In this document: piece by piece, positions 13,867 through 63,924 of the stretch
How positions within the stretch are numbered: the first letter of the stretch is position 1
How the letters are laid out: each line of letters opens with the position of its first letter
Assembly: GCA_041499475.1 (NCBI GenBank)
Contig: JBGQKI010000001.1
Location: 67,507 to 131,506 of the forward strand
DNA length: 64,000 nt
DNA from: Thermoplasmata archaeon
GTDB lineage: Archaea > Thermoplasmatota > DTKX01 > DATEUP01
Direction of reading: 5' to 3'
The notes under the pieces: model-generated
What the model saw: only the letters and a program-made list of their open reading frames with translations
Told to the model about the DNA's origin: nothing
Database searches by the model: none
Made by a program: the position numbers and the translations under genes

Positions 13867-13986
13867 ACCCCCCCAAATCCGAACGACGCGCCTCCGAAAA
13901 CTGGATGAGTGATTTTCGCACCGCCAGTCGGAAGTCATTGCCTTAGAGGCAAGAATCGGTGGAGGGCGCTTGGGAACGGTCACCAG

Positions 13987-18555: not shown

Positions 18556-18565
18556 GTGGGCGCGT

Positions 18566-19453: not shown

Positions 19454-19472
19454 GATTCACGCCTCCCCAGCC

Positions 19473-22400: not shown

Positions 22401-22685
22401 TAGCGTGGTCTGGTTGACGGTGACGAGCACGATCGCGTTGCCCTGGGTGAGGTCCTCGCCGCCGAGGTGTACGATGACAATGTTGACGCTCGTGGGGCCG
22501 GTGCGTTCGATGGAGGCCTGCAGGTCGGCCGAGACGCCGGGGGTCGGCTTGGGCATCCCCTGGACGAGCACGAAGAGGACGGAGAAGGCGGCGACCGTGA
22601 TCGCAAGCAGGATGACCGAACCCACGACCTCGGAGACGGCGTCGCGCCTCGGCCGGAAGGGGGCGCGTGCTCGATGGTCTTCCAT
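19473..22685 (-). CDS. giant (1070 aa) protein with archaeal type IV pilin-like N-terminus and repeated Ig/CARDB-like beta domains
   Basis: The N-terminus MEDHRARAPFRPRRDAVSEVVGSVILLAITVAAFSVLFVLV carries a class III signal motif. The remainder is T/S/V/G/N-rich with many sequons. Confidence 0.8.
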   Translation of the reverse strand: MEDHRARAPFRPRRDAVSEVVGSVILLAITVAAFSVLFVLVQGMPKPTPGVSADLQASIERTGPTSVNIVIVHLGGEDLTQGNAIVLVTVNQTTLTYNVSQGLGGQNTFAVGKEWRASVPLPVSPDTRVVVTVVSTASNRVLYLAQLQAGYQSGSAGFPPIITWAYAQASDGTAHVTSNGIQTFRVHAIVIDTDGNLDATNGVFVNLTVVAAGPTLQVNAIGAGRYNLSHTNDAHFQSPDLVVATSIPAGSYYVTVTAQDNAGGTATYRFPLIIDAMGASGGPTLSVDAASVAPISVNSTQSGVAIMRLNLTSTGGDTSVGQLIVTKSGSLPDSQASLSAWLDVNGNGAFSPSDDLEVTADAGFVAGSANVFAVPIATVQNGTTSTVFLVMGLISATDGTNVTFTLQATSSVRGTGVPGGVAANTTGAFPFSTTDIVVGSKLSLEPVSGVPDRLIAGSKNVRVFEFTVRAAGEPFSLKKFNVTLTGTIPRSSASAYVKINGSMISAAQNFDSSRVARFSVSFQILDTAGWIPLEVYLNISGNSGQTLGVQIAAVTESFAQGQISSKGRSGISSQPFPLDSGTVTLTSAGNLSIDEWNETGLATAVRAGMTGIYLHTFKLRAHGENIDFNKLEFVQTGNLTDAQYTAITVRVRAGVWLSGTFFAGKVTWDAGVTGKLFAITINVTNTGEAVLDVYANITTGQQAKQFSLYLNDNTRARGYGKTSLSTLYADPERAPYQLSLGVRRIQGDLLIFGTNLAPSTVLATANLMPWLKLTLKPVGENLTFDEVFLRSLQGVPPAGVVVHLYRDTNNDTTTVLQGDDVDIGSADAGVFGSDALKAFAPAYGVNIGGDTNILFVFDFAPSAAGFQMESRVNTSNTTFRGIYSGATITPNTQVGITNPTQLIYQTPPVTVYDRGTLSLATINQNGDHVNYNVLAKMIRITFSAAVEGVGITALKVHMLGNVTGSVINVAAWWDVNKDDDVTGADTQLGLSTFGSGDVTFSGSPLLNIAAGGNERIIIRILVTSSAYAYKTVGVELTSVSFLTASGATSGLGITPSGTFPITSPAVPIWP

Positions 22686-48838: not shown

Positions 48839-51800
48839 ATGTCGAAAGCAAGGCCGTTGGTGGCGCTTGGACTCCTCGGGCTGATGCTCTCTGCCTTGAC
48901 TCCCGTTGGCGCCGCTCCAGGCCAAGGCGCGCCTGCGCCGACATCGATCGAGCCGCTCTCGTTTTCATTGCCGTTTGTTTACCGCACGATGGAGGGCCTG
49001 CAAACGAACCTCATCAGTCCTTCGCCCACCTACGACCACCTCCACGATGTCGCCTGGGCGCCCGACGGGCACATGGCGCTCGCGGTGGGGAGCCACAACA
49101 CGCTCGTCGCCTTCGACCCGGCCGGCCCCTCCGCGCGCATCTTGCGCAACGGCACGCTTGGAAACCTCTACGGGGTCGCCTGGTCGGACGACTCGCAGAG
49201 CGCCCTTGCCGTAGGGTGGAATGGGGCGCTTGTGACCTATACTTCGCTCGGCGTGCAGGACCTGCCCAGCCAAGGGTTCACCGAGTGGCACGCCGCGGCG
49301 TTCGTCCCTGGCAGCGGGTTCCTTGTCGTTGGGCTCGGCGGCGCGATGTTCTTCCTCAATGGCACGACGCGCACGCCTGTGAGCTCCCCCACGACGAACG
49401 ACCTACTGGGCGTCGCCTACAACCCCGTCCTTGGCCGCGCCCTTGCCGTTGGCCGGGCGGGGACGGCGGTCGAGGTTTCCCCGACGGGCACGGCATCCCT
49501 TGTCGCCTCGCCGGTTGCCGACGACCTTCGCTCCGTGGGCTTCGAGTCGGACACGGGCAAGGGCCTGGTCGCTGGCGGGGCAGGCGTCCTGCTCTCCTAC
49601 CTCGGCGGCGCGCTTGCCAACGAGACGCACAACGCGACCGACGGCGGCTACTACGACATCTCGGTGAGCCGCTCGGGCGAGCCGGCCGTCGTGGCGATCC
49701 GCAACGGCAGCGTGGGCTCCCTCCTCTTCACGAATGCCTCGTACTCCAATTGGCTGACGGGCCGGATTTCTCTCGGCGGCGTGGAAGCCGTCGCGCGCGC
49801 GCCGTCCCAAGGTTACGTGCTCGCCACCGGCTTCTTCGGGGTTTTCGTACTCGCCTACCAAAACGGGACGCTTACGAATTTCTCCAACCCTTACCGCCCG
49901 ACGCTCACCGACGCATCTTGGCGCTCCACAGGCGACTTGGCCCTCCTCGTCGGGTTCAACGGCACGGTCATCCTATTCAACCGGACCTCGAACATGACAA
50001 ACGCGGTTCCGGTGCCGAGCGTGAACGCCAGCTTGCGGGGCGTCTCGTGGGCCGCCAACGGTTCGGAGGCGATCATCGTCGGTGGCTCGACCTTATGGCG
50101 CTACGATGCCGCGTCGGGCAACGTCTCGGAGCCGATCGGCCCCACCGCCTTAGACCTCTACGGCGTGGCCTTCAGGCCGGGCGCCACGGAGGCCGTCGTG
50201 GTGGGCTCCGCCGGGTTCGTCGGCGTGTGGAACGGATCGTCGCTCTTGCGCGTCTCCTCCACCTCGATTACGCAAGGGATCTTCACGGTCCGATGGCACC
50301 TCGACGCCGGCGGCAGCGGCGACTATGCGTACGCGGCGGGCGCCAACATCGCCGCGCGCTTCGACCCGCCGAACGCGGTTTCGACCGTAACCCGCATCGG
50401 GTCCTTCTTCGGCGTCGGGTTCATCGGCGACGACGTGTGGCTCGCCGGCAACGCCCACCAGATCCAGCGGTACGATTCTTCCAACGGGATTTGGGACAAC
50501 CTCTCGCTCCCCTCCGCGCTCTCCACCGTCCGCTTCACGCGCGCAGTCCCGCTGCCCTCCGGGGAAGGCTTGCTCCTCGTGGGCAACCAGTCTTTCAGCG
50601 GGTACCTCAACCTAACCCGTATGCTCCGCTTCGACACGGGGTTCCTTGCAGATTTCAACGGCGTCGAGTTCAACCCGGTGACGCGGGAGCCGCTCTTGTT
50701 CGGGGCATTCAGCCTCGCGTTTGACATGCGCGAGGGCACTTTCCCCAACCTGGCTCCTTTCGTCGTCCTCTCAAGCCCGACCAACGGCACCAACTGGACG
50801 TCCGCCGACACGATCACTTTCGACGCCTCGTCGTCGTACGACCTCGACGGCGACCCGATCACCACCACCTGGTGGGACAACATCACAGGGTACCTCACCG
50901 CCGCGCCCTCGTTTGCGACCCAATTGCCGGCCGGCCTCCACACGGTCACCGTGTTCGTCGACGACGGCCGGGGCCACAACGTCTCCGCTTCGGTGAACCT
51001 CTTCGTGGCGGTTGCCCAGTACGCGCCCGTACCGGTCATCGGCTCGCCGTCCGCCTCGTCGAACTATTCCGATGACGACAACATCACCTTCAGCGGCGCG
51101 ACCTCGTACGACCCCAACCCCACCGACACGCTCTCCTACCGCTGGACGCTCGACGGCTCGGAAGTCCTTGCCAATTCGTCGATCGTGGTGACCAAGCTGC
51201 GCACGGGGACCCACGTGGTGACGCTCAATGTGACCGACCAAACCCGGCTCTCCGCCGAGGCGACCGTCGTCCTCGTCATCCACCAGGGCGACGCGCCGCC
51301 CTTCCCGACCGTGGTGTCGCCCCAGGAGTCCGGGAGCTACGCCTCCAACATCCCCATCCTCTTCGACTCTACAGGCACCTTCGACAACGACTCCGCTTGG
51401 CTCACCTATGTTTGGCTTGTGGACGGCGCCGAGATCGGCCGGCTCCCCATCATGAACGCGACGCAACCTGCCGGAGCGCATACCGTGACCCTGCAAGTGA
51501 GCGACGGGGCCAAGACCTCGCAGATCGTCGTAAACATCCAGGTCGGCGGCCCCGTCGACCTGCCGCCGAAGTTCCTCTCCATCAACCCGCCGAACGGGAC
51601 CGTCCTTGTCGGTACCGTGGTTTTCAACGGCACCGTCGAGGCCGACCCTCAGGGGCCGGTGCGCTTCATCCGGTTCAGCATCAATGGCGGAAACCTCGAG
51701 ACCGCGGCCGGGTCCTCGTCGTCCTGGTCGGCGACCGTTGACACCACGCTGCTGCCCAACGGCACCATCATCGTCACGTTTCAAGCGATTGACAACGCCC

Positions 51801-52240
51801 ACGCCACGTTTGAAACTCGGTCGTACATCGTCGCCAACCCGTTTGTCGATGTGGTGCCCACCGTCGACTTCCTCACGCCTTCGTCCGGGTCGTACCTGCG
51901 CGGGACTGTGACGCTCGCGGGGTCGGTCAGCGACCCCGACACGCCGGTCGCCACGGTCGAGTACCGCATTGGCCAAGGGCCGTGGACGGCGGCGACGATC
52001 CAGGGGACTACCTGGACCGCGACGCTCGACACCGCCGGGCTCCCCGACGGCCCGGTGATCATCGAGCTGCGCGCCTTCGACGGCTACAACTACAGCAGTT
52101 CCTCGTTCGTAACGGTGAATGTCGACAATGGCGTGGTCGCCGAAGCGGGCCTGCCGCTCGAAACGCTCGCCCTTGCGGTCTTGGCCCTCGCGGCCGTCGC
52201 GGGAATTGCGTTCGTCCTGCTGAAGCGCAGGCGCGCCTAA
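48839..52240 (+). CDS. giant (1133 aa) surface protein: signal peptide, beta-propeller-like repeats, three PKD-like domains, Ig-like domains, C-terminal TM anchor
   Basis: Signal peptide MSKARPLVALGLLGLMLSALTPVGAAPG. Repeats of the type LYGVAWSDDSQSALAVGWNGALV. PKD-like DASSSYDLDGDPITTTWW, SYDPNPTDTLSYRWTLDG and FDNDSAWLTYVWLVDG. C-terminus LALAVLALAAVAGIAFVLLKRRRA. Confidence 0.85.
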   Translation: MSKARPLVALGLLGLMLSALTPVGAAPGQGAPAPTSIEPLSFSLPFVYRTMEGLQTNLISPSPTYDHLHDVAWAPDGHMALAVGSHNTLVAFDPAGPSARILRNGTLGNLYGVAWSDDSQSALAVGWNGALVTYTSLGVQDLPSQGFTEWHAAAFVPGSGFLVVGLGGAMFFLNGTTRTPVSSPTTNDLLGVAYNPVLGRALAVGRAGTAVEVSPTGTASLVASPVADDLRSVGFESDTGKGLVAGGAGVLLSYLGGALANETHNATDGGYYDISVSRSGEPAVVAIRNGSVGSLLFTNASYSNWLTGRISLGGVEAVARAPSQGYVLATGFFGVFVLAYQNGTLTNFSNPYRPTLTDASWRSTGDLALLVGFNGTVILFNRTSNMTNAVPVPSVNASLRGVSWAANGSEAIIVGGSTLWRYDAASGNVSEPIGPTALDLYGVAFRPGATEAVVVGSAGFVGVWNGSSLLRVSSTSITQGIFTVRWHLDAGGSGDYAYAAGANIAARFDPPNAVSTVTRIGSFFGVGFIGDDVWLAGNAHQIQRYDSSNGIWDNLSLPSALSTVRFTRAVPLPSGEGLLLVGNQSFSGYLNLTRMLRFDTGFLADFNGVEFNPVTREPLLFGAFSLAFDMREGTFPNLAPFVVLSSPTNGTNWTSADTITFDASSSYDLDGDPITTTWWDNITGYLTAAPSFATQLPAGLHTVTVFVDDGRGHNVSASVNLFVAVAQYAPVPVIGSPSASSNYSDDDNITFSGATSYDPNPTDTLSYRWTLDGSEVLANSSIVVTKLRTGTHVVTLNVTDQTRLSAEATVVLVIHQGDAPPFPTVVSPQESGSYASNIPILFDSTGTFDNDSAWLTYVWLVDGAEIGRLPIMNATQPAGAHTVTLQVSDGAKTSQIVVNIQVGGPVDLPPKFLSINPPNGTVLVGTVVFNGTVEADPQGPVRFIRFSINGGNLETAAGSSSSWSATVDTTLLPNGTIIVTFQAIDNAHATFETRSYIVANPFVDVVPTVDFLTPSSGSYLRGTVTLAGSVSDPDTPVATVEYRIGQGPWTAATIQGTTWTATLDTAGLPDGPVIIELRAFDGYNYSSSSFVTVNVDNGVVAEAGLPLETLALAVLALAAVAGIAFVLLKRRRA

Positions 52241-52348
52241 TCGGCGTTTCCCGACAATAAGGCCCCTGGGCCCCCCGGCCGCCCGAGTCCTCGTTTCACC
52301 AATCACTACAAAACTCTTAACACCTGACGCCGGCCACGTTGAGGCGCG

Positions 52349-53473
52349 ATGAAGACCGTCGTATTCTGCATCGACCGCGACAACGATGTCGGCGAGAAGG
52401 CTGGCGTCAAGGGCCCGATCATCGGGCGCAAGGACAACCTTGCGGCTGCGATGCGGCTCGCGCTTGCAGACCCGGAGGACACCGACCTCAACACGATCTT
52501 CATGGCCGTCAAGATCCACGACCAGATGAAGCGCGACGGGCGGGACGTCGAGGTCGTCACGCTGCTCGGCGACCGCGACGTTGGGCTCACCTCCGACGAG
52601 AAAATTTCCCACCAGATCGACGCCGTGCAACAGGTCCTGAAGGCCGAGGCCGCCGTCATCGTCACCGATGGGGCGGAAGATGAGTTCGTCCTGCCGCTCA
52701 TCCAGAGCCGGATGAAGATCATCTCGATCAACCGCGTCATCGTCAAGTCGCTCCCGACCGGAAAGGAGACCGTCTCGATCCTGCGCCGGTACATGCAGGA
52801 GGAGCGCTTCAAGATTCAACTGCTCCTGCCGCTGTCGCTCGTCGTGCTCTCTTACGCCATCTTCGGCGTATTCCGAGTGACCGAGTTTTGGCCGATCGCG
52901 CTCGCGTTCGTGGTCGGCGGCTACCTGGCGATGAACGCCCTCAACGTCGAGGAGGGCGTGCGCAACCTGATGCGCAATGTGCGCGTCGGCGTGGCGACTT
53001 CGAGGCTCACGCTTGCCGGCAACGCGGTGGCCGCGATCATCGTGGCGATCGGCGCAATCGTGTCGGCCCAGTTCATCCTCTCGGGCAGCTCGCCGCTGGG
53101 CATCGTCCTCAAGCGGGGCCAGGCTCCGGCCGATGTGCCGGGCATGCTGATCGCCTTCGCGCTCCTTTTTGCCCCCGTGATTTACACGGCGCTGCTCGTG
53201 CGCCTCACCTTCCGCGTGCTCGACTTCCGCCTCCGCCGGGGCAAGCACGCGGGCGGCCTGACGCTGCGCTTCCTGCCGCTCACGGGCTACGCCCTGCTGG
53301 GCTGGGGCGCGGCCGGCGTCTTCTCGGTAATCTTGGGGATGGCCTACGGGTTTGGCCTGTGGGCCTCGTTCGCCATCGGCGCGCTTGGCCTTGTCATCGT
53401 GTTTGCAGGCGCCCTTGTCGACCGCCGCTTCAAGGACCGCGTCTCGGCGGAAGCCGAAGAAGCGGGCGCCTAA
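52349..53473 (+). CDS. DUF373-family archaeal membrane protein
   Basis: N-terminal soluble domain MKTVVFCIDRDNDVGEKAGVKGPIIGRKDNLAAAMRLALADPEDTDLN...VTDGAEDEF, followed by about 6 TM helices. Confidence 0.75.
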   Translation: MKTVVFCIDRDNDVGEKAGVKGPIIGRKDNLAAAMRLALADPEDTDLNTIFMAVKIHDQMKRDGRDVEVVTLLGDRDVGLTSDEKISHQIDAVQQVLKAEAAVIVTDGAEDEFVLPLIQSRMKIISINRVIVKSLPTGKETVSILRRYMQEERFKIQLLLPLSLVVLSYAIFGVFRVTEFWPIALAFVVGGYLAMNALNVEEGVRNLMRNVRVGVATSRLTLAGNAVAAIIVAIGAIVSAQFILSGSSPLGIVLKRGQAPADVPGMLIAFALLFAPVIYTALLVRLTFRVLDFRLRRGKHAGGLTLRFLPLTGYALLGWGAAGVFSVILGMAYGFGLWASFAIGALGLVIVFAGALVDRRFKDRVSAEAEEAGA

Positions 53474-54207
53474 GCGAGCTTGCGGGCAAAAGTCAAGTAG
53501 CCCGTGTGGGCGAGCATTTCGAAGCTCGGGCGGCTCGCGCCCTCCCTTATCGCATGCTCGCGCTCCAGCACCTCGACGGTGCGCACGTCGGAAAAGTGGG
53601 CGGCCTCGAGGGCGGTCACCGTTTTCTCGGTCTGGTTCACCGTCGGGGAAAACGAGGCGAGGCGCCCGCAAGGCTTGAGCAGCCGCTGCGCGGGGGGCAC
53701 CGCTTGCCACGGGTCGGAAATGTCGATCACCACGGCGTCGGCGCCGGTCTCGGCGATGCCCGCCGTGCAGTCGCCCTCTCGCATTTCCCACCAGCCGCCC
53801 CACGGCGTGCGCGCCACGTTCTTCCGCGCGACCTCGATGTGGCGGGGGTTGATGTCGAGGGAGATGACGCGCCCCTCGGGGCCCACCGCGTGCAGCAGCG
53901 CAAGGGTAAGCGCGCCCGACCCCACGCCGAACTCCACGACAAAGGCGCCGGCGCCCACGGCGGTGTTCGCAAGGATCACCGCCGCGTCTTTGAGCGTGAT
54001 AATCTGCGCGCCCCGCCGCAGCAGGCGGATGAAGTCCGGCAGCGAAGGCCGCAGGAGGTGGACCGTCTGCGCGCCCACCGTAACAAATCCGCCCCACGGC
54101 GTGCCGACGAGCGTTTCGAGCTTGAACACGCCAAGGCCCTCCACCTTGGCGCCCTTCTCCGTCACCTCGGCAAGCGCCTCGTGGCGGTCCCAGCGGAAGA
54201 GCACCAT
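53470..54207 (-). CDS. trmI: tRNA (adenine-N1)-methyltransferase TrmI (Gcd14 family)
   Basis: LLRPSLPDFIRLLRRGAQIITLKDAAVIL, SAM motif VVEFGVGSGALTLALLHAVGPEGRVISLDI, and DAVVIDISDPW. The internal ATG at 54207 gives the typical length of about 245 aa. Confidence 0.85.
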   Translation of the reverse strand: MVLFRWDRHEALAEVTEKGAKVEGLGVFKLETLVGTPWGGFVTVGAQTVHLLRPSLPDFIRLLRRGAQIITLKDAAVILANTAVGAGAFVVEFGVGSGALTLALLHAVGPEGRVISLDINPRHIEVARKNVARTPWGGWWEMREGDCTAGIAETGADAVVIDISDPWQAVPPAQRLLKPCGRLASFSPTVNQTEKTVTALEAAHFSDVRTVEVLEREHAIREGASRPSFEMLAHTGYLTFARKLA

Positions 54208-54721: not shown

Positions 54722-55861
54722 ATCGACTTCGACCTCACCGACGAGCAACAGATGGTGCGCAAGGTCGCGCGGGACTTCGCCGAGACGCGTGTCAAGCCGA
54801 TTGCGGCGGAGATCGACCGGACCGCCAGGTGGCCCGCCGAGACCGTGGAAGGCCTGGCGGAGCTCGGGCTGCTTGGGATGATGGTGCCCGCGCAGTGGGG
54901 GGGCGCGGGCGCCGACTACGTGTCGTATGTGGGGGTCGTCGAGGAGCTGTCACGCGTTTGCGCTTCGACCGGGGTGATCCTCTCGGTCAACAACTCGCTC
55001 TTCGCATACCCCGTGTCGTCCTTCGGGACGCCTGAGCAGAAGGAAAAATACCTGCGCCCGATCGGAGAAGGCAAGAAACTCGGCTCCTACGCGCTATCGG
55101 AGCCCGCCGCCGGTTCCGACCCGGGGGCGCTCAAGGCTACCGCCAGGCCCGACGGCGAGTTCTACATCCTCAACGGCACGAAGCACTTCATCACGAACGG
55201 GCCCGCCTCGGACTTCTGCGTCGTCTATGCCAACGAAGACCTCTCGAAGGGGCACCGCGGAATCTCAGCGTTCATCCTCGAAAAGGGGATGAAGGGCTTT
55301 GATGTGGGCTCCGAGGAAGAAAAGCTAGGGATCCGCGCCTCCGGTTCCTGCGAAATGGTGTTCCACGACTGCGCGGTGCCTAAGGCGAACCGGCTGGGCC
55401 CCTCCGGGGAGGGGTTCAAGATCGCGCTGAAAACGCTCGACGCCGGCCGCATCGGGATCGCGGCGCAGGCGACGGGAATCGCGCAAGGGTCTCTGGACGC
55501 GGCCTGCGAATACGCGAAGAACCGCACGCAATTTGGCCAGAAGATCGGCAACTTCCAGGCGATCCAGTGGAAGCTTGCGGACATGGCGGTCGGCATCGAG
55601 GCCGCACGGCTGCTCACGCAGCGTGCGGCCTGGCTGAAGGACCGGGGCGAGCCGCACAGCTTAGAGGCCTCGGTCGCCAAGCTCTTCGCGTCGAACGTGG
55701 CGATGCAGGCCTCGACCGACGCCGTGCAGGTCTTCGGCGGAGTCGGCTACACGAAGGACTACCCCGTCGAGCGGTTCTATAGGGACGCGAAAATCACGGA
55801 GATCTACGAAGGCACGAGCGAGGTGCAGCACATCGTGATCTCGCGCGCGGTGCTGAAGTGA
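54722..55861 (+). CDS. acyl-CoA dehydrogenase (short/butyryl-chain type)
   Basis: The full ACAD pattern is present (PIAAEIDRTARWP, YALSEPAAGSD, GSCEMVFHDCAVP, QFGQKIGNFQAIQWKLADM, YEGTSEVQ). The conserved N-terminus IDFDLTDEQQ lies in frame upstream of the first ATG (54752). The start is provisionally set at the ATC at 54722, which is preceded by AGGAAGGG; 54752 is the fallback. Confidence 0.9.
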   Translation: MDFDLTDEQQMVRKVARDFAETRVKPIAAEIDRTARWPAETVEGLAELGLLGMMVPAQWGGAGADYVSYVGVVEELSRVCASTGVILSVNNSLFAYPVSSFGTPEQKEKYLRPIGEGKKLGSYALSEPAAGSDPGALKATARPDGEFYILNGTKHFITNGPASDFCVVYANEDLSKGHRGISAFILEKGMKGFDVGSEEEKLGIRASGSCEMVFHDCAVPKANRLGPSGEGFKIALKTLDAGRIGIAAQATGIAQGSLDAACEYAKNRTQFGQKIGNFQAIQWKLADMAVGIEAARLLTQRAAWLKDRGEPHSLEASVAKLFASNVAMQASTDAVQVFGGVGYTKDYPVERFYRDAKITEIYEGTSEVQHIVISRAVLK

Positions 55862-55946
55862 GCCGCTTTCGCTCTACCCCCCCACACCCTATACTACACG
55901 CGCGAGAATAGGGTGGGCGGGCGGGACGAAAAACGGAGGGGCGAGC

Positions 55947-56378
55947 GTGGAACACCACCGCGAAGGCGACCTGATCCTGGTGCGGCTCGACCGCGGCGAG
56001 GACCTGATCGGGAGCCTGCTTTCGGCGCTCAAGGCGAGCGGCGCACGGGGAGCCGCGGTGATGACCGGGCTTGGCGCCGTCGAGGATGTCGAGTTCGCAT
56101 ACTATGACCCCAAGGCGCGAACCTACGACCGAAAAGTCCTCGAGGTCTCCCACGAAATCCTCGGGCTCTCGGGCATTGTGGCAAGCGCCCCCGACGGCTC
56201 CTACCAGCCGCACTTCCACATCACGCTGGGGGGCCCCGACCACCGGGCCTATGGGGGCCACCTCTTCCGCGCACGCATCGCCGTGCTTGCGGAATTCGCC
56301 CTGCGGGTCGTCGACAACCCGAAGATGAGGCGCGAAAAGGAGCCGCAGTTCGGGCTGAACGCGCTGCGGCTCAATTGA
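55947..56378 (+). CDS. PPC / DUF296 domain protein
   Basis: LILVRLDRGEDLIGSLLSALKASGARGAAVMTGLGAVEDVEFAYYD...HFHITLGGPDHRAYGGHL matches the PPC fold signature. GTG start. Confidence 0.75.
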   Translation: MEHHREGDLILVRLDRGEDLIGSLLSALKASGARGAAVMTGLGAVEDVEFAYYDPKARTYDRKVLEVSHEILGLSGIVASAPDGSYQPHFHITLGGPDHRAYGGHLFRARIAVLAEFALRVVDNPKMRREKEPQFGLNALRLN

Positions 56379-56614: not shown

Positions 56615-58573
56615 ATGCTCGGGGGGGGCTGCTTGGCCTTGACCCTTCAGCGCGACTCCAAGCGCGCGAGCGCCGCGGGCGCCCTTGGCGTGGTGGTCGG
56701 AGGCTCGTTGGGGCTCGTCGATGTTGCCCTCCGTTTCCTTTCGGGCACCGAGGACTCCCTGCGGTTCGAGTGGGGTTTCCCGGGCAACACCTTCTACCTC
56801 GAAGTCGACGCCCTTTCCGCCTTCTTCCTGGTGGTCATCTTTGCGGTGGCGATCGCAAGCGCCGTCTTCGGCGCGCCCTACCTTCGCGGCCACGCCCCCA
56901 ACCGCCCGCTTGGCGCCGTGTGGTTCCACTACAGCGCCCTCGTCGTCTCGATGGCGCTCGTCGTCGTCGCCCGCAACGGGCTCCTCTTCCTGATCGGGTG
57001 GGAATCCATGGCGCTGACCTCGTTCTTCCTCGTCATGTTCGACGGACGGGAAGCGCGCGTTCGCCGGGCCGGCTGGACTTACTTCGTCGCCTCTCACTTC
57101 GGGACCGGCTGCGTCCTCGCCTTTTTCGCGGTGCTTGGTGCCCACGCCGGCTCTCTCGACTTCGACCGGATCGCGGCCGCTCCGCCGCTCACCCCCGCGA
57201 CCTCATCGCTCCTGTTTCTCCTTGCCATCGCGGGGTTCGGCACGAAAGCGGGATTCATTCCGCTCCATGTGTGGCTCCCCGAGGCGCACCCGGCCGCTCC
57301 GGCCCATGTCTCCGCCCTGATGTCGGGCGCGATGATCAAACTTGGAATCTACGGGATCCTGCGCGCGCTCACCTTCCTTGGGGCCGCCCCTGCCTGGTGG
57401 GGGTGGCTGCTCGTTGCCGTCGGGGCGACCTCGGGCGTGCTCGGCGTCCTCTTCGCGCTGGCGCAGCACGACCTCAAGCGATTGCTTGCCTACCACAGCG
57501 TGGAGAACATCGGCATCATCGCCCTGGGCCTCGGGGTGGGGCTGCTCGGGACAACGGCAGGCGATCCCGCGGTCGCGTTCCTCGGGTTCTCCGGCGCGCT
57601 CCTCCACGTCCTCAACCACGCGCTCTTCAAGTCCCTGCTCTTCCTCGGCGCCGGGGCCGTGTCCACCGCCGCCCATGCGCTCGACCTCGAGCACCTCGGC
57701 GGGCTCCTGCGGCGGATGCCGCGCACCGGCGCCTCGTTCTTGGTGGGTTCGGCCGCCATCAGCGGCCTGCCGCCCCTCAACGGCTTTGCAAGCGAGTTCC
57801 TGATTTTCGCCGGGGCGCTTGCCGGGGCCACCACGCTTGGGCCAACCTTTGCCATTCCGCTTGCGGCGTGCGCCGGCGCGCTCGCGCTCATCGGCGGCCT
57901 TGCGGCCGCCTGCTTTGTGAAGGCGTGCGGGGTGGCTTTCCTCGGCGAGCCGAGGACTCCGAACGCGCGGGACGCGCGGGAGGTTGCGCCCCTGATGGCC
58001 GCCCCCCAGGTCGCGCTTGCCGCCCTTTGCGTCGCCCTCGGCGTCGGCGCCCCCCTTGTGGTCCCGCTCCTTTTGCCGGCCGCCGCGCCGGTACTTGGCA
58101 CCACGCTTGCCGGTGCGTCGCAAGCCGCCGGTTTCGCATCGGGCGCGCTGGCATCGATCTCGGTCGCCTTCGCCCTGGTCGTTGGCCTGGCGCTCGCCCT
58201 CATCGTGCTCCGCCGTGGACTTGGAAGGGGGGCCCCCATCCGGACGGGTCCCACTTGGGACTGCGGGTTTGCGGCGCCTTCACCGCGGATGCAGTACACC
58301 GCCTCGTCGTTTGCCGCCCCGCTCACAGGGTACTTCCGGAGTTTGCTGCGCACGCGCGCCGAAGTTGCAGCCCCTTCGGGGCCGTTCCCCGGCCGCGCAT
58401 CACTCGAAACCGAGAGCCCCGACTTCTTCCTTGAAGGCGTGTTCGAGACCGCCATCCTTGGAGCTCGACGCGCGCTCTCGGGGGTGCTGCGCCTCCAAAA
58501 CGGGCGGGTCCAGTTCTACGTCCTCTACCTCGTGGCCACTTTGATCGGGCTGCTAATCTGGAGGCTGATTTGA
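56615..58573 (+). CDS. HyfB/NuoL-like proton-conducting antiporter-type membrane subunit
   Basis: About 15 TM, with GWESMALTSFFLV, FGTKAGFIPLHVWLPEAHPAAPAHVSALMSGAMIKLGIYG and LAYHSVENIGII. The true start is probably upstream (see findings). Confidence 0.88.
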   Translation: MLGGGCLALTLQRDSKRASAAGALGVVVGGSLGLVDVALRFLSGTEDSLRFEWGFPGNTFYLEVDALSAFFLVVIFAVAIASAVFGAPYLRGHAPNRPLGAVWFHYSALVVSMALVVVARNGLLFLIGWESMALTSFFLVMFDGREARVRRAGWTYFVASHFGTGCVLAFFAVLGAHAGSLDFDRIAAAPPLTPATSSLLFLLAIAGFGTKAGFIPLHVWLPEAHPAAPAHVSALMSGAMIKLGIYGILRALTFLGAAPAWWGWLLVAVGATSGVLGVLFALAQHDLKRLLAYHSVENIGIIALGLGVGLLGTTAGDPAVAFLGFSGALLHVLNHALFKSLLFLGAGAVSTAAHALDLEHLGGLLRRMPRTGASFLVGSAAISGLPPLNGFASEFLIFAGALAGATTLGPTFAIPLAACAGALALIGGLAAACFVKACGVAFLGEPRTPNARDAREVAPLMAAPQVALAALCVALGVGAPLVVPLLLPAAAPVLGTTLAGASQAAGFASGALASISVAFALVVGLALALIVLRRGLGRGAPIRTGPTWDCGFAAPSPRMQYTASSFAAPLTGYFRSLLRTRAEVAAPSGPFPGRASLETESPDFFLEGVFETAILGARRALSGVLRLQNGRVQFYVLYLVATLIGLLIWRLI

Positions 58574-58575
58574 GC

Positions 58576-59487
58576 ATGGAGCCCGCCTCCCTGCTGCAGG
58601 CCGGCCTTGCCGCCTCGCTGTCTCCCCTCTTGCTTGGCATCATCAACCGCGTCAAGTCCGTCGTTGCCGGCCGCACCGGGCCACCGCTCGTCCAGCCCTA
58701 CCGCGACCTTGCAAAACTCATGCGAAAGGGCTCGGTGTACAGCGAAACCACCACATGGGTTTTCCGCACGGGCCCCGCCTTTGGGCTCGCCGCGCTCTTC
58801 GGGGCCGTGCTGCTCCTGCCGCTTGGCCCCTCGGCCGCTCCCCTTGGCTTTGCAGGTGACCTGTTCCTGCTTGCCGGCCTCTTCTCGCTCCAGCGATTTT
58901 GCCTCATGCTCTGCGCGCTCGACACCGGATCGAGCTTTGAAGGGATGGGCGCAAGCCGCGAGGCTTTTTTTGCGGCGATCGGCGAGCCGGCGCTCCTCAT
59001 CGGCCTGCTCGTGGCGGCGCGCGGCGCCCTCAGCCTCTCGCTTACCGGGCTGCTCGGGGCGACCACCCTTGCAACCGCGGTGGCTGCCGGCCCCGCCCTG
59101 CTGCTCGTTGCCGTTGCGCTCTTCCTCCTCCTGCTCGCCGAGAACGCGCGCATCCCCGTAGATGACCCGAGCACGCACCTCGAGCTCACGATGATCCACG
59201 AGGTCATGGTGCTCGACAACAGCGGCGTTGACCTCGCGTACATCACGTACGCCTCCGCCCTGAAGCTGTGGGTCTTTGGGGCGCTCGTCGTCGGCCTCCT
59301 GCTGCCGACCGGCGGCCTGCCCATCGAGGCCGTCGTGCCGCTGTTTGTGCTCTCGATGGTCGGGCTTGCCGTCGCCGTGGGCGTCGTGGAATCCACGATG
59401 GCGAGGGTGCGCCTCTCGCGCGTGCCTCGTCTGCTGGTCGGCGCCGGCGGCCTCACCGCGCTCGCGCTCCTGCTCTCTGTATTCTAG
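58576..59487 (+). CDS. HyfC/HycD (NuoH-like) membrane subunit
   Basis: LLLGIINRVKSVVAGRTGPPLVQPYRDLAKLMRKGSV is the HycD/NuoH N-terminal signature. ENARIPVDDPSTHLELTMIHEVMVLD. ATG at 58576 (TTG at 58570 is an alternative), overlapping or abutting the previous stop. Confidence 0.88.
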   Translation: MEPASLLQAGLAASLSPLLLGIINRVKSVVAGRTGPPLVQPYRDLAKLMRKGSVYSETTTWVFRTGPAFGLAALFGAVLLLPLGPSAAPLGFAGDLFLLAGLFSLQRFCLMLCALDTGSSFEGMGASREAFFAAIGEPALLIGLLVAARGALSLSLTGLLGATTLATAVAAGPALLLVAVALFLLLLAENARIPVDDPSTHLELTMIHEVMVLDNSGVDLAYITYASALKLWVFGALVVGLLLPTGGLPIEAVVPLFVLSMVGLAVAVGVVESTMARVRLSRVPRLLVGAGGLTALALLLSVF

Positions 59488-59490
59488 GAG

Positions 59491-60141
59491 GTGCCTCGCT
59501 TGTCCTCGCTTGCCGACTCGGTGCTCGTCCTCGTCGTGCTTTCCAACTTGGCAATGCTCGGCACCAACAACCTTGGCAACTCGATCCGGCTGCTTGCGCT
59601 GCAGGGGTTCGCGATCGGCGCGCTCGTACTCCTGCTCGCCCCCGAGGCCGACCTGCGCACGCTCCTGCTCGCCGCCGGGGTGGCCGGCCTCAAGGGGCTC
59701 GTTTACCCGTGGGCGCTCGTGCGCGTGTTGCGCAAGGTGAAGGTCGTAAGCGAGGACGAGCCCCTGGTGGGCTACTCGGTCACCTTCATCACGGGGATCC
59801 TCGCCCTTGCGGTCGCCTTCATCGTGGCCCCGCGCCTCGCGCCGGTGGGGCCCGCGCCGCCCCCGCTTGCACTCGCCGTCGCGCTTTCCACGATGATCGC
59901 CGGACTCACCCTCACGATCACGCGCCGCACCGCGCTTGCCCAGGTCCTTGGATATGTAGTCCTTGAGAACGGGATCTTCCTCTTCGCGCTCACCCTCGTC
60001 GGCGGCCTACCGCTGCTGCTCGAGCTCGGCGGCCTGCTTGAGGTATTCTTTGCGGTGTTCGTGATGGGCATCGCGGTCGACCGCATCAGCCGGGAGTTTT
60101 CGACGATCGACGTCGACGCGCTCGACCGGCTCCGGGGGTGA
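59491..60141 (+). CDS. HyfE-like membrane subunit
   Basis: 216 aa and about 7 TM, with AQVLGYVVLENGIFLFAL typical of HyfE. AGGAGG precedes the gene; TTG 59500 is an alternative start. Confidence 0.8.
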   Translation: MPRLSSLADSVLVLVVLSNLAMLGTNNLGNSIRLLALQGFAIGALVLLLAPEADLRTLLLAAGVAGLKGLVYPWALVRVLRKVKVVSEDEPLVGYSVTFITGILALAVAFIVAPRLAPVGPAPPPLALAVALSTMIAGLTLTITRRTALAQVLGYVVLENGIFLFALTLVGGLPLLLELGGLLEVFFAVFVMGIAVDRISREFSTIDVDALDRLRG

Positions 60142-60145
60142 AGCG

Positions 60146-61627
60146 ATGGACGGCTCCTTGGAGTTCCTCCTGCTGCTCGGGTTGCCCCTCCTTGGGGCAA
60201 GCGTATCGCTTACGCTCGGCCATCCGCGCAGCGTGCTGGCCTGGAGCGGCGCTTGGGTCGGCGCCTGGGCGCTCGTCGCCTTCGAGGCCGCCTCCAGGGT
60301 TTTCGCCGGGGAGGCGCTCGACGGCGCTTCCGGATGGCTCATGCTCGACGCGCTTTCCGCCTACCACATCTGCGTGATGGCAGTCGTGTTTGTCCTTGCC
60401 ACGGCGTTTGCGTATTTTTACTTCGGGCGCGAGGTCGACGAGGGCAAGCTTTCGCCCCGCATCGCCCGCCGCTTTGGGATGCTCTGGGCCGGCGCCCTGT
60501 TTGCCATGACGCTCGTCCTTTCGTCCAACAACCTCGGCATCATGTGGGTCGGCGTCGAGTTCACCACCCTTTCGACCGCGTTCCTGATCCGCCTCCACGT
60601 TACGCACGAGTCGCTCGAAGCCACGTGGAAGTACCTCGTGATCTGCTCCGTCGGCGTCGCGCTCGCCTTCCTCGGAGTCGTGTTCATTGCGGCCTCGGCC
60701 CGCGCCGTGCTCCCCAACGGCGAGGAGGCGACGATGTGGACGAGCCTCCTGGCGGTTTCCGCCAAGCTCGACCCAGGCCTTGCAAAGGCCGGCTTCTTGT
60801 TTGTCCTTGTCGGCTTCGGTACGAAGGCCGGGCTTGCGCCCATGCACACCTGGCTCCCCGACGCGCACAGCCAGGCGCCGGGTCCTGTGTCGGCGGTGTT
60901 CTCCGGCTCGCTGCTCAACGCGGCGCTCTACTGCATCCTGCGCTACGTGCCTATCGTCGAAGGGGCGACCGGCCGCTCGGGTTTTGCGCTCTCGCTGCTC
61001 ATCGTGTTCGGACTGGGCTCCCTGCTGCTTGCGGCCGCGTTCATGGTTTTCCAGCGGGACATCAAGCGCCTGCTTGCGTATTCGAGCGTCGAGCACATCG
61101 GGATCATCACGCTCGGAATCGGGCTCGGGCCCCTCGGGGCCTTTGCGGCCCTCTTCCACGTGTTGAACCACTCCGTGTCGAAGTCGGTCGCGTTCTTGGC
61201 GGCCGGCCGGCTGAGCGAGGCCTACGGCGGAAGCGAGATCGCGCGCCTGCGCGGGGCCGCGCGCGCTCAACCGCTCTGGGGAGGCGCGCTCGTCGCGAGC
61301 TTGCTTTCGCTTGTCGGGGCCGCCCCCTTTGCCGTGTTCCTCAGCGAGTTCTTGGTGCTGCAGGCCGCGGCCGCGGCAGGCGCCTGGGCGGTGGTCGGCC
61401 TCCTTGTCCTCGGCCTGGGTATCGTGTTCGCAGGCGTCCTCGTGCACCTCGTGGCCATCGGCTGGGGCGAGCCGACCTCGCCGAGCCAAATCACCCGCGC
61501 GGGGCCCTTCGAGGCCGCCACGGTCGTGGTGCCGCTTACCGCCCTTCTAGTCCTCGGCCTTTTCATGCCGGGGGCCCTGCGCGACGCGCTCGAACAGGCG
61601 GTCCGTGTCGTGGGAGGCGGACTCTGA
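60146..61627 (+). CDS. HyfF/HycC (NuoM/N-like) antiporter-type membrane subunit
   Basis: GFGTKAGLAPMHTWLPDAHSQAPGPVSAVFSGSLLNAALY, LAYSSVEHIGIITLGIG; 493 aa. Its stop overlaps the next start (TGATG). Confidence 0.88.
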   Translation: MDGSLEFLLLLGLPLLGASVSLTLGHPRSVLAWSGAWVGAWALVAFEAASRVFAGEALDGASGWLMLDALSAYHICVMAVVFVLATAFAYFYFGREVDEGKLSPRIARRFGMLWAGALFAMTLVLSSNNLGIMWVGVEFTTLSTAFLIRLHVTHESLEATWKYLVICSVGVALAFLGVVFIAASARAVLPNGEEATMWTSLLAVSAKLDPGLAKAGFLFVLVGFGTKAGLAPMHTWLPDAHSQAPGPVSAVFSGSLLNAALYCILRYVPIVEGATGRSGFALSLLIVFGLGSLLLAAAFMVFQRDIKRLLAYSSVEHIGIITLGIGLGPLGAFAALFHVLNHSVSKSVAFLAAGRLSEAYGGSEIARLRGAARAQPLWGGALVASLLSLVGAAPFAVFLSEFLVLQAAAAAGAWAVVGLLVLGLGIVFAGVLVHLVAIGWGEPTSPSQITRAGPFEAATVVVPLTALLVLGLFMPGALRDALEQAVRVVGGGL

Positions 61628-63114
61628 TGTCTTCACAGACAGCGGTTCTTCGTTCCGCATTGCCGCTCGGCAACGGCCAGGCCGCGAGCGTCTCGGAGGT
61701 CCCGACCCTCGACTTCGGCTCGTTCCGGGCGCTCATCGAGTCGGCGGTCGAGGCCGGCGGCCGTGTTGCAGCGCTCTACGCCTCGGCGGGGCAGGGCGGC
61801 GGGCCGATGCTGACCGTGGTGCTCGCGCTCGGCGCCGAAGGGGTGCTTGGCGTTGCCTCGACGCCGGTGGGCGCCACTTTCCCTTCGATGACCGTGGAAA
61901 TCCCGCAGCTGCACCTCTTCGAGCGCGAGATCTACGAGGGAGGCCTCACCGCGCCCGTCGGCCACCCGTGGCTGAAACCCGTCCGGCTCTTGGCGGGCGG
62001 CGGGAAGGCCCCGTTCTACAAAGTCGAGGGGAAGGAAGTCCACGAGGTGGCGGTCGGCCCTGTCCACGCCGGCGTGATCGAGCCGGGCCACTTCCGCTTC
62101 CAGGCCCACGGCGAAGAGGTCCTCCACCTCGAGATTGCCCTCGGCTACCAGCACCGGGGGGTCGAGCGCGCGATGGTGGGCGGCCCCCATGCGCGCAGCG
62201 CGCTCCTTGCCGAAACGCTCGCGGGCGATTCGAGCGTCGCGCACGCGACCGCCTACGCGCGGGCCGTGGAGGCGCTTGCCCACGCCACCAACTCGCCGCG
62301 CGCCCGCGTGCTTCGCGGAGTTGCCCTCGAACTCGAGCGGATGGCCAACCACACGGGCGACCTCGGGGCCCTTGCCGGTGACATCGGCTTCCTTCCGACG
62401 GCCGCGTTCTGTGGACGGGTGCGCGGCGACTTCCTGAACCTCACCTTGGCGCTCACTGGCAGCCGGATGGGCCATGCGTTCGTGGTCCCGGGCGGGGTGC
62501 GCGCCGACGCCGACGCGCCGCTCGTGGAGGCGCTGCGGGCGGGCACGAAGCGGGCGCTTGGCGATGCCCGGCAGGGCGCCGACCTCCTCTGGAGCACCGC
62601 CTCCGTGCGCGGCCGACTTGGCGGGACGGGCACCCTCAGCCGCGAGACCTGCGAGGAGATGGGCATCGTCGGGGTCGCCGCCCGCGCCTCCGGCCTGCCC
62701 CGCGATGTGCGGCGCGAGTTCCCCTGGGGGGTGTTCCTCGACCGCGCGATCGAAGCCCGCCTCTGGCCCACTGGCGACGTGTACGCCCGCGCGCGGGTGC
62801 GCTGGATGGAGGTCGAGCAGTCGGCCGGTTGGGTCGATGGCCTGCTTGCCAAGCTCCCGGAAGGCGTCCTTGAGCACCCGAGGGGACCCCTTGCCCCCGA
62901 TTCCCTTGCGGTCTCGCTCGTCGAGGGTTGGCGCGGCGAGATTTGCCATGTCGCGCGGACGGGCAGGGACGGGCGGTTCGTCGACTACAAAGTCGTTGAC
63001 CCGTCCTTCCACAATTGGACGGGCCTTGCGCTCGCGATGCGCGGTGCGGCGATCTCCGACTTCCCGCTCATCAACAAGAGTTTCAACCTCTCCTATGCGG
63101 GCCACGACCTCTGA
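61627..63114 (+). CDS. HycE/HyfG-like (NuoC+NuoD fused) large subunit lacking all four NiFe-ligand cysteines
   Basis: GPVHAGVIEPGHFRF, LGYQHRGVE and LELERMANH are conserved. The L1 position reads ETLAGDSSVAH (HycE DRVCGICGFAH). The C-terminus reads SFNLSYAGHDL-stop (HycE SLDPCYSCTDR...). The ATG at 61627 was chosen; the upstream part of the 953-aa track ORF was rejected. Confidence 0.88.
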   Translation: MSSQTAVLRSALPLGNGQAASVSEVPTLDFGSFRALIESAVEAGGRVAALYASAGQGGGPMLTVVLALGAEGVLGVASTPVGATFPSMTVEIPQLHLFEREIYEGGLTAPVGHPWLKPVRLLAGGGKAPFYKVEGKEVHEVAVGPVHAGVIEPGHFRFQAHGEEVLHLEIALGYQHRGVERAMVGGPHARSALLAETLAGDSSVAHATAYARAVEALAHATNSPRARVLRGVALELERMANHTGDLGALAGDIGFLPTAAFCGRVRGDFLNLTLALTGSRMGHAFVVPGGVRADADAPLVEALRAGTKRALGDARQGADLLWSTASVRGRLGGTGTLSRETCEEMGIVGVAARASGLPRDVRREFPWGVFLDRAIEARLWPTGDVYARARVRWMEVEQSAGWVDGLLAKLPEGVLEHPRGPLAPDSLAVSLVEGWRGEICHVARTGRDGRFVDYKVVDPSFHNWTGLALAMRGAAISDFPLINKSFNLSYAGHDL

Positions 63115-63123
63115 GGGAAACCC

Positions 63124-63924
63124 ATGATCCGAATCATCGAGGCGCGGCGCCACCAGGGCCACAAAACCACGCCGTTCCCGTACGGCAACCCCGGTCTGCC
63201 CGGCCGGTTCCGGGGCCTGCCGGTCATCCAACCGGGGAAGGTCACGCAAGGGTGCAGCGCTTGCGTCGAGGCCTGCCCCACCGGCGCGCTCACGATGGAG
63301 GCCGGCGCGCTTTCGCTTGACCTAGGCAAGTGCATTTTCTGCGGTGACTGCGCGCGCGCCTGCCGCTCGGGCGCGGTGACCTTGAGCAATGGGTTCCGCC
63401 TCTCGTCGCGCAGCCGCGAGGGGCTCACCTTGAAGGACTCGGAGGTCCCGCGCGTGGAGGCGCTCGACCGGAAGGCCCGCCGCCTCTTCGGGCGCTCGCT
63501 GCGCCTGCGCCAAGTGAGCGCCGGGGGGTGCAACGGCTGTGAAGTGGAACTCGCGGCGCTGCAAAACGTCGTCTTCGACTTCCAGCGGTTCGGGATCCAG
63601 TTCGTCGCTTCGCCGCGCCACGCCGACGGCCTGCTGGTGACCGGCCCCGTAACACGCAACATGGAGCTCGCCCTGCGCAAGACCTACGCCGCCGTCCCCG
63701 AGCCCAAGATCGTCATTGCCGCGGGGGCCTGCGCAATCTCCGGCGGGCCGTTTGCCCTCAACCCCGAAGTGATGGGGGGCGCGGCCGCTGTCGTCCCGGT
63801 CGACCTCTACATCGCTGGCTGCCCGCCCCACCCGATAACGCTGCTCGATGGGCTCCTGCGGCTCCTCGGGCGCATCGAAGGTGGGGATGCGCGCGGCGAA
63901 GGCCCTGCGCCGCCCTCGCCCTAG
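63124..63924 (+). CDS. fusion of ferredoxin-like (HycF/NuoI-type) domain and HycG/NuoB-like small subunit
   Basis: N-terminal CSACVEACP and CIFCGDCARAC. The C-terminal NuoB-like part has GGCNGCEVE, SPRHADGLLVTGPVT, GACAISGG and AGCPPHP. GAGGGAAA SD upstream. Confidence 0.88.
   Translation: MIRIIEARRHQGHKTTPFPYGNPGLPGRFRGLPVIQPGKVTQGCSACVEACPTGALTMEAGALSLDLGKCIFCGDCARACRSGAVTLSNGFRLSSRSREGLTLKDSEVPRVEALDRKARRLFGRSLRLRQVSAGGCNGCEVELAALQNVVFDFQRFGIQFVASPRHADGLLVTGPVTRNMELALRKTYAAVPEPKIVIAAGACAISGGPFALNPEVMGGAAAVVPVDLYIAGCPPHPITLLDGLLRLLGRIEGGDARGEGPAPPSP

Follow-up and report, generated by a model that had tools for sequence, protein, structure and literature searches.

What does a hydrogenase large subunit become when every ligand of its metal has been replaced? 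This question is raised by a locus from a Thermoplasmata archaeon (contig JBGQKI010000001.1), analysed here within a stretch of 64,000 nucleotides that is called the window and to which all coordinates refer. The gene localized at 61627..63114 (+) encodes EhrL, a protein of 495 amino acids that is a HycE/HyfG-like fusion of NuoC and NuoD without the ligands of the NiFe site and without the C-terminal extension. Taken as a whole, and including the mechanism proposed below, the best explanation, which we hold to be probable, is that this archaeal gene provides an Ehr complex (EhrA-B-C-D-L-S) with its large subunit. The finding is a rediscovery of a published family in a new host, and not a new case of NiFe-site loss.

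The large subunit and its former nickel-iron site

EhrL was used as query with phmmer against all PDB chains, and was aligned with MAFFT to E. coli HycE, HyfG and NuoCD, P. furiosus MbhL and T. thermophilus Nqo4. The best match was the HycE chain 7z0s_E (E = 6.8e-39); MbhL (E = 6.9e-34) and MbsL (6u8y_L, E = 2.2e-20) were also recovered, and the Pfam model Complex1_49kDa matched EhrL at 1.7e-34. Both programs place the four NiFe cysteines of HycE (C241, C244, C531 and C534) opposite A199, S202, S489 and G492 of EhrL. In the phmmer alignment, the HycE segment 'drvcgicgfahstay' is paired with 'aetlagdssvahatay' and '...sldpcys' is paired with '...sfnlsya'. An earlier note on this DNA had proposed the loss of all four cysteines from an alignment made by eye. 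The formal alignment reproduces its placement of the L1 and L2 motifs, with a cysteine at none of the four positions, and the codons are those it had cited (62221-62223 GCG for A199, 62230-62232 TCG for S202, 63091-63093 TCC for S489 and 63100-63102 GGC for G492). The flanking blocks that it had described as conserved, GPVHAGVIEPGHFRF, LGYQHRGVE and LELERMANH, are all found in the translated protein. EhrL contains three cysteines in total (262, 342 and 440), none of them in L1 or L2. Since the homology is confident, the loss can be read directly from the sequence and is not a chance pattern.

The absence of the C-terminal extension was also recovered. The stop codon TGA (63112-63114) comes directly after L495, which is aligned to R537 of HycE. 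We take the cleavage of HycE by HycI to fall after R537, and EhrL therefore ends where mature HycE ends. A read-through of the TGA, or its decoding as selenocysteine, was considered and rejected: all family members end with ...GHDL, and the bacterial loci differ in frame and spacing. In the window as in the related locus L084, 9 nucleotides separate the TGA of EhrL from the ATG of EhrS without a change of frame (63112-63126 in the window); this is probably a coincidence, the bacterial spacings and frames being different. At the other end of the gene, the start codon ATG (61627) shares bases with the stop codon of the upstream gene EhrD (TGATG) and orthologues start at the same place, so that a 953-residue open reading frame that reads into EhrL from 60253 is an artefact of open frames in DNA of 67% GC. 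The high GC content also yields long spurious antisense open reading frames in the window, at 50771-54097 (-) and 61633-63249 (-).

The fold of the protein is kept, as the earlier note had concluded. The AlphaFold2 model obtained from an alignment of 61 sequences is confident, with a pLDDT of 88.9 and a pTM of 0.91. With Foldseek, the first match is again HycE 7z0s_E (TM 0.88/0.82 over 533 columns), and it covers the full length, including the NuoC-like N-terminal domain; it is followed by E. coli NuoCD and then by mitochondrial 49-kDa subunits, MbhL and Nqo4. The hydrogenase-like part of HycE itself comprises residues 182-537 (PMC9474812). Low confidence is confined to the beta1-beta2 loop (145-153, the lowest values) and to the last five residues. 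In homologous complexes, this loop and the C-terminal end are packed onto the small subunit and the anchor, and the low confidence of the loop is thus to be expected in a model of the isolated subunit.

The conservation of residues was counted over 123 sequences of the EhrL family and reveals that the replacements are themselves conserved. The L1 remnant E196-Y210 (ETLAGDSSVAHATAY, 62212..62256, +) carries A199 and S202 at the positions of the CxxC cysteines and G200 at the position of Tyr87 of Nqo4. Position 199 is Ala in 107 sequences, Cys in 12 and Ser in four; position 202 is Thr in 104, Ser in 16 and Ala in three. The L2 remnant, S485-L495 (SFNLSYAGHDL), forms the C-terminus and is followed by the TGA (63079..63114, +); S489 and G492, which occupy the positions of its CxxC cysteines, are invariant (123/123). 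T197 and D201 are invariant as well. The first replaces the L1 Arg (R84 of Nqo4) and the second stands between the two former cysteine positions of L1. Asp529 of HycE, described as strictly conserved across the superfamily (PMC9474812), corresponds to Asn487 in 120 sequences. None of the references in the comparison shares T197, D201 or N487 with Ehr. About 130 positions of EhrL are at least 97% invariant.

Several residues near the lost metal are those of a hydrogenase. The beta1-beta2 block G144-F158 (GPVHAGVIEPGHFRF, 62056..62100, +) is invariant or nearly so and contains E152, equivalent to E193 of HycE and E21 of MbhL, as well as I151 at the position of His38 of Nqo4. Three residues of the second sphere are invariant, namely E152, H206 (the L1 His, H248 in HycE) and R436 (the canopy Arg, R478 in HycE), and so is D252, the equivalent of D139 in Nqo4. 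The His and Tyr ligands of quinone in NuoD were looked for and both are absent: H38 and Y87 of Nqo4 correspond to Ile151 and Gly200, each invariant in the family. The comparison with NuoD made in the earlier note is consequently valid in part. It stands for the loss of the NiFe cysteines and of the extension and for the common fold, and it fails for the quinone residues, which are missing, and for the hydrogenase-type residues and the CxxC proximal cluster, which are kept. As far as can be judged from the sequence, H2 chemistry by EhrL is excluded because no thiolate ligand is present, and canonical quinone binding is not supported.

The six-gene operon and the Ehr family

EhrL is encoded by the fifth of six co-directional and tightly packed genes (56615-63924, +) that are, in order, HyfB-, HyfC-, HyfE- and HyfF-like, large subunit and small subunit. 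Their start and stop codons overlap or are separated by a few bases. The order is that of the E. coli hyf operon minus hyfA and hyfD.

The first gene, EhrA (56615..58573, +), encodes an antiporter-type membrane subunit of 652 amino acids related to HyfB and NuoL (Pfam Proton_antipo_M, 1.1e-52; best NCBIfam model 'hydrogenase 4 subunit B', 2.4e-188). Among the residues characteristic of NuoL/M/N, it retains the Glu of transmembrane helix (TM) 5, the Lys of TM7 and TM8, the His of TM11 and the Glu of TM12, a pattern that is that of HyfB. The fourth gene, EhrD (60146..61627, +), encodes the other antiporter-type subunit, related to HyfF and NuoN (NCBIfam 'hydrogenase 4 subunit F', 3.1e-119; Proton_antipo_M, 1.7e-46). 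It retains the Glu of TM5, the Lys of TM7, the His of TM11 and the Glu of TM12, as in HyfF. Between them are found EhrB (58570..59487, +), a membrane anchor of the HycD/HyfC/NuoH type (Pfam NADHdh, 4.1e-27), and EhrC (59491..60141, +), a small HyfE-like membrane subunit that matches the NCBIfam model 'hydrogenase 4 membrane subunit' (HyfE) over its full length (1.4e-26) and, weakly, the NuoK-type Pfam model Oxidored_q2. The start of EhrB is ambiguous: TTG at 58570 overlaps the stop codon of EhrA, and ATG at 58576 gives a protein of 303 amino acids, the length of the orthologue called in L084; the latter is the more likely start. The residues R108, E130, E138, E189 and E206 of the HycD E-channel are retained in EhrB and are invariant or nearly invariant in 60 members of the family. 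E199, in a loop of HycD, is replaced by Ser in the window and by Asn in most members, and E201 of HycD by a His that is invariant in the 60 members.

The last gene encodes the small subunit EhrS (63124..63924, +; 266 amino acids), where a HycF/NuoI-like ferredoxin domain with two [4Fe-4S] clusters (about 63241-63375) is fused to a HycG/NuoB-like domain (about 63526-63885). Pfam models of the Fer4 families and Oxidored_q6 (3.7e-31) match the protein; in NCBIfam, the model 'formate hydrogenlyase iron-sulfur subunit' covers residues 1-104 and NuoB residues 135-254. Conservation was counted over 75 EhrS sequences. The family displays eight cysteines in two ferredoxin-type motifs and four in the proximal cluster, and these twelve ligands are conserved in 92-100% of the sequences. 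The proximal ligands C136, C139, C203 and C233, arranged in the hydrogenase-type motif CxxC...C...C, reach 97-99%. The first two belong to the motif GGCNGCE, a CxxC, and the tandem Cys-Cys of the complex I cluster N2 is not present. These motifs define a chain of three Fe-S clusters, two of the ferredoxin-like domain and one proximal cluster of hydrogenase type.

Since the catalytic cysteines have all disappeared, the gene could be read as a decaying hydrogenase, that is a pseudogene or relic. No homologues of HypA, HypB, HypC, HypD or HycI were found in the 64-kb window, a result in line with such a reading and uninformative for a piece of this size. All the frames are intact and the starts are translationally coupled. 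Between the window and L084, where EhrL is 80% identical, the dN/dS ratio (nonsynonymous to synonymous substitution rates) of EhrL is 0.145; the six genes together span 0.14-0.19, against 0.10 in the neighbouring acyl-CoA dehydrogenase gene. The replacement residues are moreover invariant across phyla (S489 and G492 in 123/123 sequences, together with D201 and T197). All six genes are under purifying selection and the operon is functional; these tests refute decay, to which we give next to no credence.

The same subunits allow an assignment to complex I to be assessed. EhrL could be the NuoCD subunit of complex I or of another quinone reductase of NDH-1 type: one public homologue is annotated in this way, E. 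coli NuoCD ranks second among the structural matches, and the models Complex1_49kDa of Pfam and NuoD of NCBIfam match the protein, both below their cut-offs. All NuoD models are in fact far under their curated cut-offs (178.6 versus 360 bits), and HyfB, HyfE and HyfF are the best-scoring models for the membrane subunits. The quinone residues H38 and Y87 of Nqo4 are replaced by an invariant Ile and Gly, the small subunit carries CxxC and not the tandem CC that is a feature of complex I (PMC8165549), and the operon contains no NuoA, NuoE, NuoF or NuoG. On the ligands, the cluster motif, the gene content and the scores, this highly improbable assignment is refuted.

The features of the locus correspond to those of Ehr, for 'Ech-/energy-converting-hydrogenase-related'. 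These complexes are related to the group 4 (4f/4a) [NiFe]-hydrogenases, lack the NiFe CxxC motifs and have an unknown function; they have been reported in many bacteria, in ammonia-oxidising archaea, in comammox Nitrospira and in M. tuberculosis (Rv0082-87) (PMC10284858, PMC6349859, PMC10432482, PMC6728331, PMC4758237). In G. sulfurreducens, the cluster is GSU0739-45 and its subunits have been named EhrA-1, EhrC, EhrL and EhrS (PMC7894505). A homology search recovered at least 8000 homologues of EhrL, all with E <= 1e-10, and at least 553 EhrL-encoding stretches were confirmed in contigs taken from one genome per species. The loci were compared using the best 80 of these stretches, which come from Planctomycetota, Verrucomicrobiota, Myxococcota, Desulfuromonadales/Geobacteraceae, Elusimicrobia, Omnitrophota, Methylomirabilota and others, with identities of 49-58%. 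All 80 are consistent with the order EhrA-B-C-D-L-S, which is complete wherever the locus spans the whole cluster. Two Geobacteraceae loci (L055 and L082) contain two copies of EhrA and thus seven genes, a layout that matches GSU0739-45. Against Ehr members of many bacterial phyla, Geobacteraceae MAGs among them, the identity amounts to 50-58%. The Ehr complex was reportedly described by Coppi in 2005 and by Marreiros et al. in 2013. The probable placement of our operon within Ehr is based on identity levels, synteny and motifs.

Genomic surroundings

The host is archaeal, as indicated by the genes of RadA and of archaeal ribosomal proteins in the window and by the genes of topoisomerase VI (Topo VI) in a syntenic relative. 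This relative, P0002 (loci L084-L086), is 80% identical and contains the same six genes, preceded by an acyl-CoA dehydrogenase gene and a PCC-domain gene. Downstream of the operon of the relatives are found a divergent AsnC-type regulator and then the Topo VI A/B genes, from which we conclude that the archaeal operon ends at EhrS with no attached dehydrogenase module.

Upstream, the acyl-CoA dehydrogenase and PCC genes occupy 54752-56378 in the window and 443-2068 in L084; the corresponding coordinates in L085 are 989-1420. The PCC (DUF296) gene of the window (55947..56378, +; Pfam PCC, 5.9e-25) is separated from EhrA by a gap of 237 nucleotides. It is found at the same position, with the acyl-CoA dehydrogenase gene, in L084 and L085 and is absent from the bacterial loci, and its membership in the system is uncertain. 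The acyl-CoA dehydrogenase was not adopted as a part of the system, its gene being conserved only among close archaeal relatives. L085 and L086 contain a second, weaker PCC gene just past the operon (9702-10019 in L085).

Among the 80 related loci, no conserved partner oxidoreductase adjoins the operon, and the bacterial loci show no conserved partner gene downstream. The only recurrent neighbour is an upstream regulator gene (HTH_17 + PTS_EIIA_2) detected in 39 bacterial loci and absent from the archaeal ones. This HTH_17-PTS EIIA-2 fusion gene is co-directional with the operon and usually precedes EhrA directly (L004-L083; for instance 3922-4626 in L053 and 1980-2792 in L055), and is likely a dedicated Ehr regulator. 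One locus, L031 from a metagenome-assembled genome (MAG) of Phycisphaerales, displays a second and far more divergent NuoB-/NuoH-/NuoD-like cluster (17836-21243, -; 29-43% identity) on the opposite strand, 6 kb downstream of its ehr operon.

Elsewhere in the window, four very large surface proteins are predicted (1070-1909 amino acids; 812-6541 (-), 13909-18555 (+), 19473-22685 (-) and 48839-52240 (+)). The last one is rich in N-x-S/T sequons and carries PKD/Big_7 domains and a C-terminal membrane anchor; the first also shows N-x-S/T sequons in the part inspected. The window has a GC content of 67% and its proteome is non-acidic, which makes a haloarchaeal host unlikely, and poor in cysteine (0.5% over 26 non-ehr genes). 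The idea that a low cysteine content is specific to EhrL was consequently rejected, the other proteins of the window averaging the same 0.5%.

Possible function and comparison with known systems

In the mechanism that we propose, a soluble low-potential carrier, most likely ferredoxin, would dock on the ferredoxin-like domain of EhrS, and the three clusters of this subunit would carry the electrons to a chamber that EhrL, EhrS and EhrB surround. The electrons would there reduce an acceptor other than H+/H2 and other than a quinone bound in the canonical way, or the reverse reaction would take place. Both the beta1-beta2 loop, which is invariant in EhrL, and the E-channel of EhrB could then relay the change in redox and protonation state to ion translocation by EhrA and EhrD. 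EhrL would in this way act as a scaffold and coupling element and not as a metal-containing catalyst. Our guess is a membrane-soluble acceptor that would enter via EhrB, since the surrounding genes encode neither a dehydrogenase nor an acceptor module.

Several points weigh against this interpretation. The link to the type sequence of G. sulfurreducens would run only via Geobacteraceae MAGs: the EhrL of L055, L082, L062 and L056 (MAGs of Geobacteraceae, Pelobacteraceae and Desulfuromonadales) is 52-53% identical to that of the window. All mechanistic steps beyond the cofactor motifs are inference, the Ehr complexes having no known biochemical function. The missing His and Tyr of the NuoD quinone site weaken the guess of a membrane quinone. 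In the first ferredoxin motif of EhrS (Cx3Cx2Cx3CP), the first cysteine, conserved in 92% of the 75 sequences, is replaced by Val40 (63241-63243) in the window, and close relatives have Val as well; in this clade, one distal cluster out of two is thereby left with three Cys ligands and may be altered or missing. The second motif is intact in the window. Finally, a supercomplex of formate dehydrogenase with Ehr has been proposed in Margulisbacteria (PMC6349859), and a higher abundance of Ehr with formate has been noted in Geobacter (PMC7894505). Neither next to our operon nor among the genes that recur around ehr in the 80 related loci was a formate dehydrogenase gene identified.

Other cysteines have also changed in the archaeal clade. 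The bacterial EhrL proteins contain four family-specific conserved cysteines that are unrelated to the NiFe site (262, 440, 482 and 491 in the numbering of the window), and all four are found in more than 100 of the 123 sequences. In the clade of the window (P0001-P0006 and P0121), the cysteines 482 and 491 are replaced by Ile and Ala, the position of A491 being Cys in most bacterial members, and the cysteines 262 and 440 vary between close relatives. As the proteome is poor in cysteine, these changes look like a loss of non-essential cysteines. They also mean that the large subunit of this clade has no strict requirement for any of its cysteines, none of which is strictly conserved there.

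These observations give some room to a further reading, which we hold to be improbable without dismissing it. Ehr would then be a distinct class of respiratory enzymes, with a remodelled pocket for a cofactor or substrate that has no counterpart in the complex I superfamily; the bacterial cysteines 262/440/482/491 might ligate a new metal site, of which the archaeal clade would be a thiolate-free variant. The proposed pocket is lined by the invariant residues T197, D201, E152, H206, N241, D252, R436, N487 and S489 and by the free C-terminal HDL. If this were true, the archaeal clade would demonstrate that the core chemistry needs no thiolate of the large subunit and takes place at the proximal cluster or with O/N ligands.

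Substrate reduction at the proximal [4Fe-4S] cluster is also what a reductase of the MBS/Mbx type would perform, acting on a non-quinone substrate such as polysulfide, with a large subunit that only shapes a hydrophobic chamber. MBS catalyses at this cluster without a NiFe site, and its two residual large-subunit cysteines are dispensable (PMC7684303); Ehr likewise has neither the NiFe nor the quinone ligands. However, MBS lacks the glutamate E21 of MbhL and has no proton pathway (PMC7684303), whereas the corresponding E152 is invariant in Ehr, and the E-values given above for HycE (6.8e-39) and MbsL (2.2e-20) place Hyc/Hyf closer by sequence. The presence of all four proximal cysteines in EhrS also speaks against this reading and is not decisive, since the MBS sequence has the fourth one too, displaced only in the structure. 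We regard a function of this type as quite unlikely.

It could also be supposed that no redox reaction is coupled at all, Ehr being a redox-independent cation/proton antiporter of Mrp type on which the hydrogenase-derived arm forms a structural or regulatory cap that senses redox state or metabolites. The intact antiporter residues, the lack of a recognisable acceptor site in EhrL and of a conserved partner oxidoreductase nearby, and the HTH + PTS-EIIA2 gene that precedes bacterial operons are consistent with this idea; regulators of this type are often tied to ion homeostasis. It is nevertheless unlikely, because the 92-100% conservation of the twelve Fe-S ligands of EhrS and the invariance of E152, H206, R436 and D252 in EhrL are difficult to account for if no electrons are transferred and no proton-coupled chemistry takes place at the site. 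The Ehr complex working by the coupled mechanism set out above is retained as the preferred explanation.

Ehr is among the most widespread members of the superfamily of complex I and group 4 hydrogenases without known function. The window adds nothing categorically new; an archaeal member depleted in cysteine narrows the set of residues that are possibly essential. A set of polar residues of the pocket, the chain of three clusters, the E-channel and the antiporter residues are conserved. A warning also concerns annotation, since public homologues are labelled 'Ni,Fe-hydrogenase III large subunit', 'hydrogenase' or 'NADH-quinone oxidoreductase subunit C'. Counting Ehr homologues as H2-evolving hydrogenases or as complex I in metabolic reconstructions would be wrong.

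Compared to complex I (NuoD/Nqo4/NDUFS2, also NdhH and FpoD), Ehr has in common the loss of the four NiFe cysteines, the absence of a C-terminal extension, the fold and the Asp equivalent to D139 of Nqo4. It differs by the absence of the quinone residues His38 and Tyr87, by a canopy Arg where complex I mostly has Lys, by CxxC instead of tandem CC in the small subunit (PMC8165549), and by a cluster of six genes without NuoA/J/K and without the NuoEFG/NADH-dehydrogenase module. The sulfane-sulfur reductase MBS (Mbx) of P. furiosus, with MbsL as large subunit (PDB 6U8Y), is also a complex-I-like relative of group 4 that lacks the NiFe site and the residues H38 and Y87 of Nqo4 (PMC7684303). MbsL, however, keeps two of the four cysteines (C85 and C385) and has lost the glutamate E21 (PMC7684303), whereas Ehr has lost all four, with about 10% of members keeping the first, and keeps the glutamate. 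The membrane arm of MBS is moreover of Mrp type with many small subunits.

The group 4a [NiFe]-hydrogenases of E. coli, hydrogenase 4 or Hyf (HyfBCDEFGHI) and hydrogenase 3 or Hyc of the formate hydrogenlyase (HycBCDEFG; PDB 7Z0S), are more similar. HycE, a NuoC-NuoD fusion, is the best match in sequence and in fold, the gene order parallels hyfB-C-(D)-E-F-G-H-I, and the beta1-beta2 Glu, the canopy Arg, the L1 His, the proximal cluster of CxxC type and the E-channel residues are all kept in Ehr. The four NiFe cysteines and the C-terminal extension of 32 residues are absent from Ehr, however; the partners HyfA/HycB, HyfD and FdhF are missing from the operon of the window, and the HyfH-like and HyfI-like proteins are fused as EhrS. 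D529 of HycE is Asn in Ehr, and E199 and E201 of HycD are Ser/Asn and His. As for the known Ehr systems, the window copy differs from that of G. sulfurreducens (EhrA-1, A-2, B, C, D, L and S) by its single EhrA and its archaeal host, and from the bacterial loci by acyl-CoA dehydrogenase and PCC genes upstream in place of the HTH-EIIA2 regulator gene. It shares with them the group-4-like large subunit without CxxC and the same set of subunits in the same order, namely NuoL-like, NuoH-like, HyfE-like, NuoN-like, large and small.

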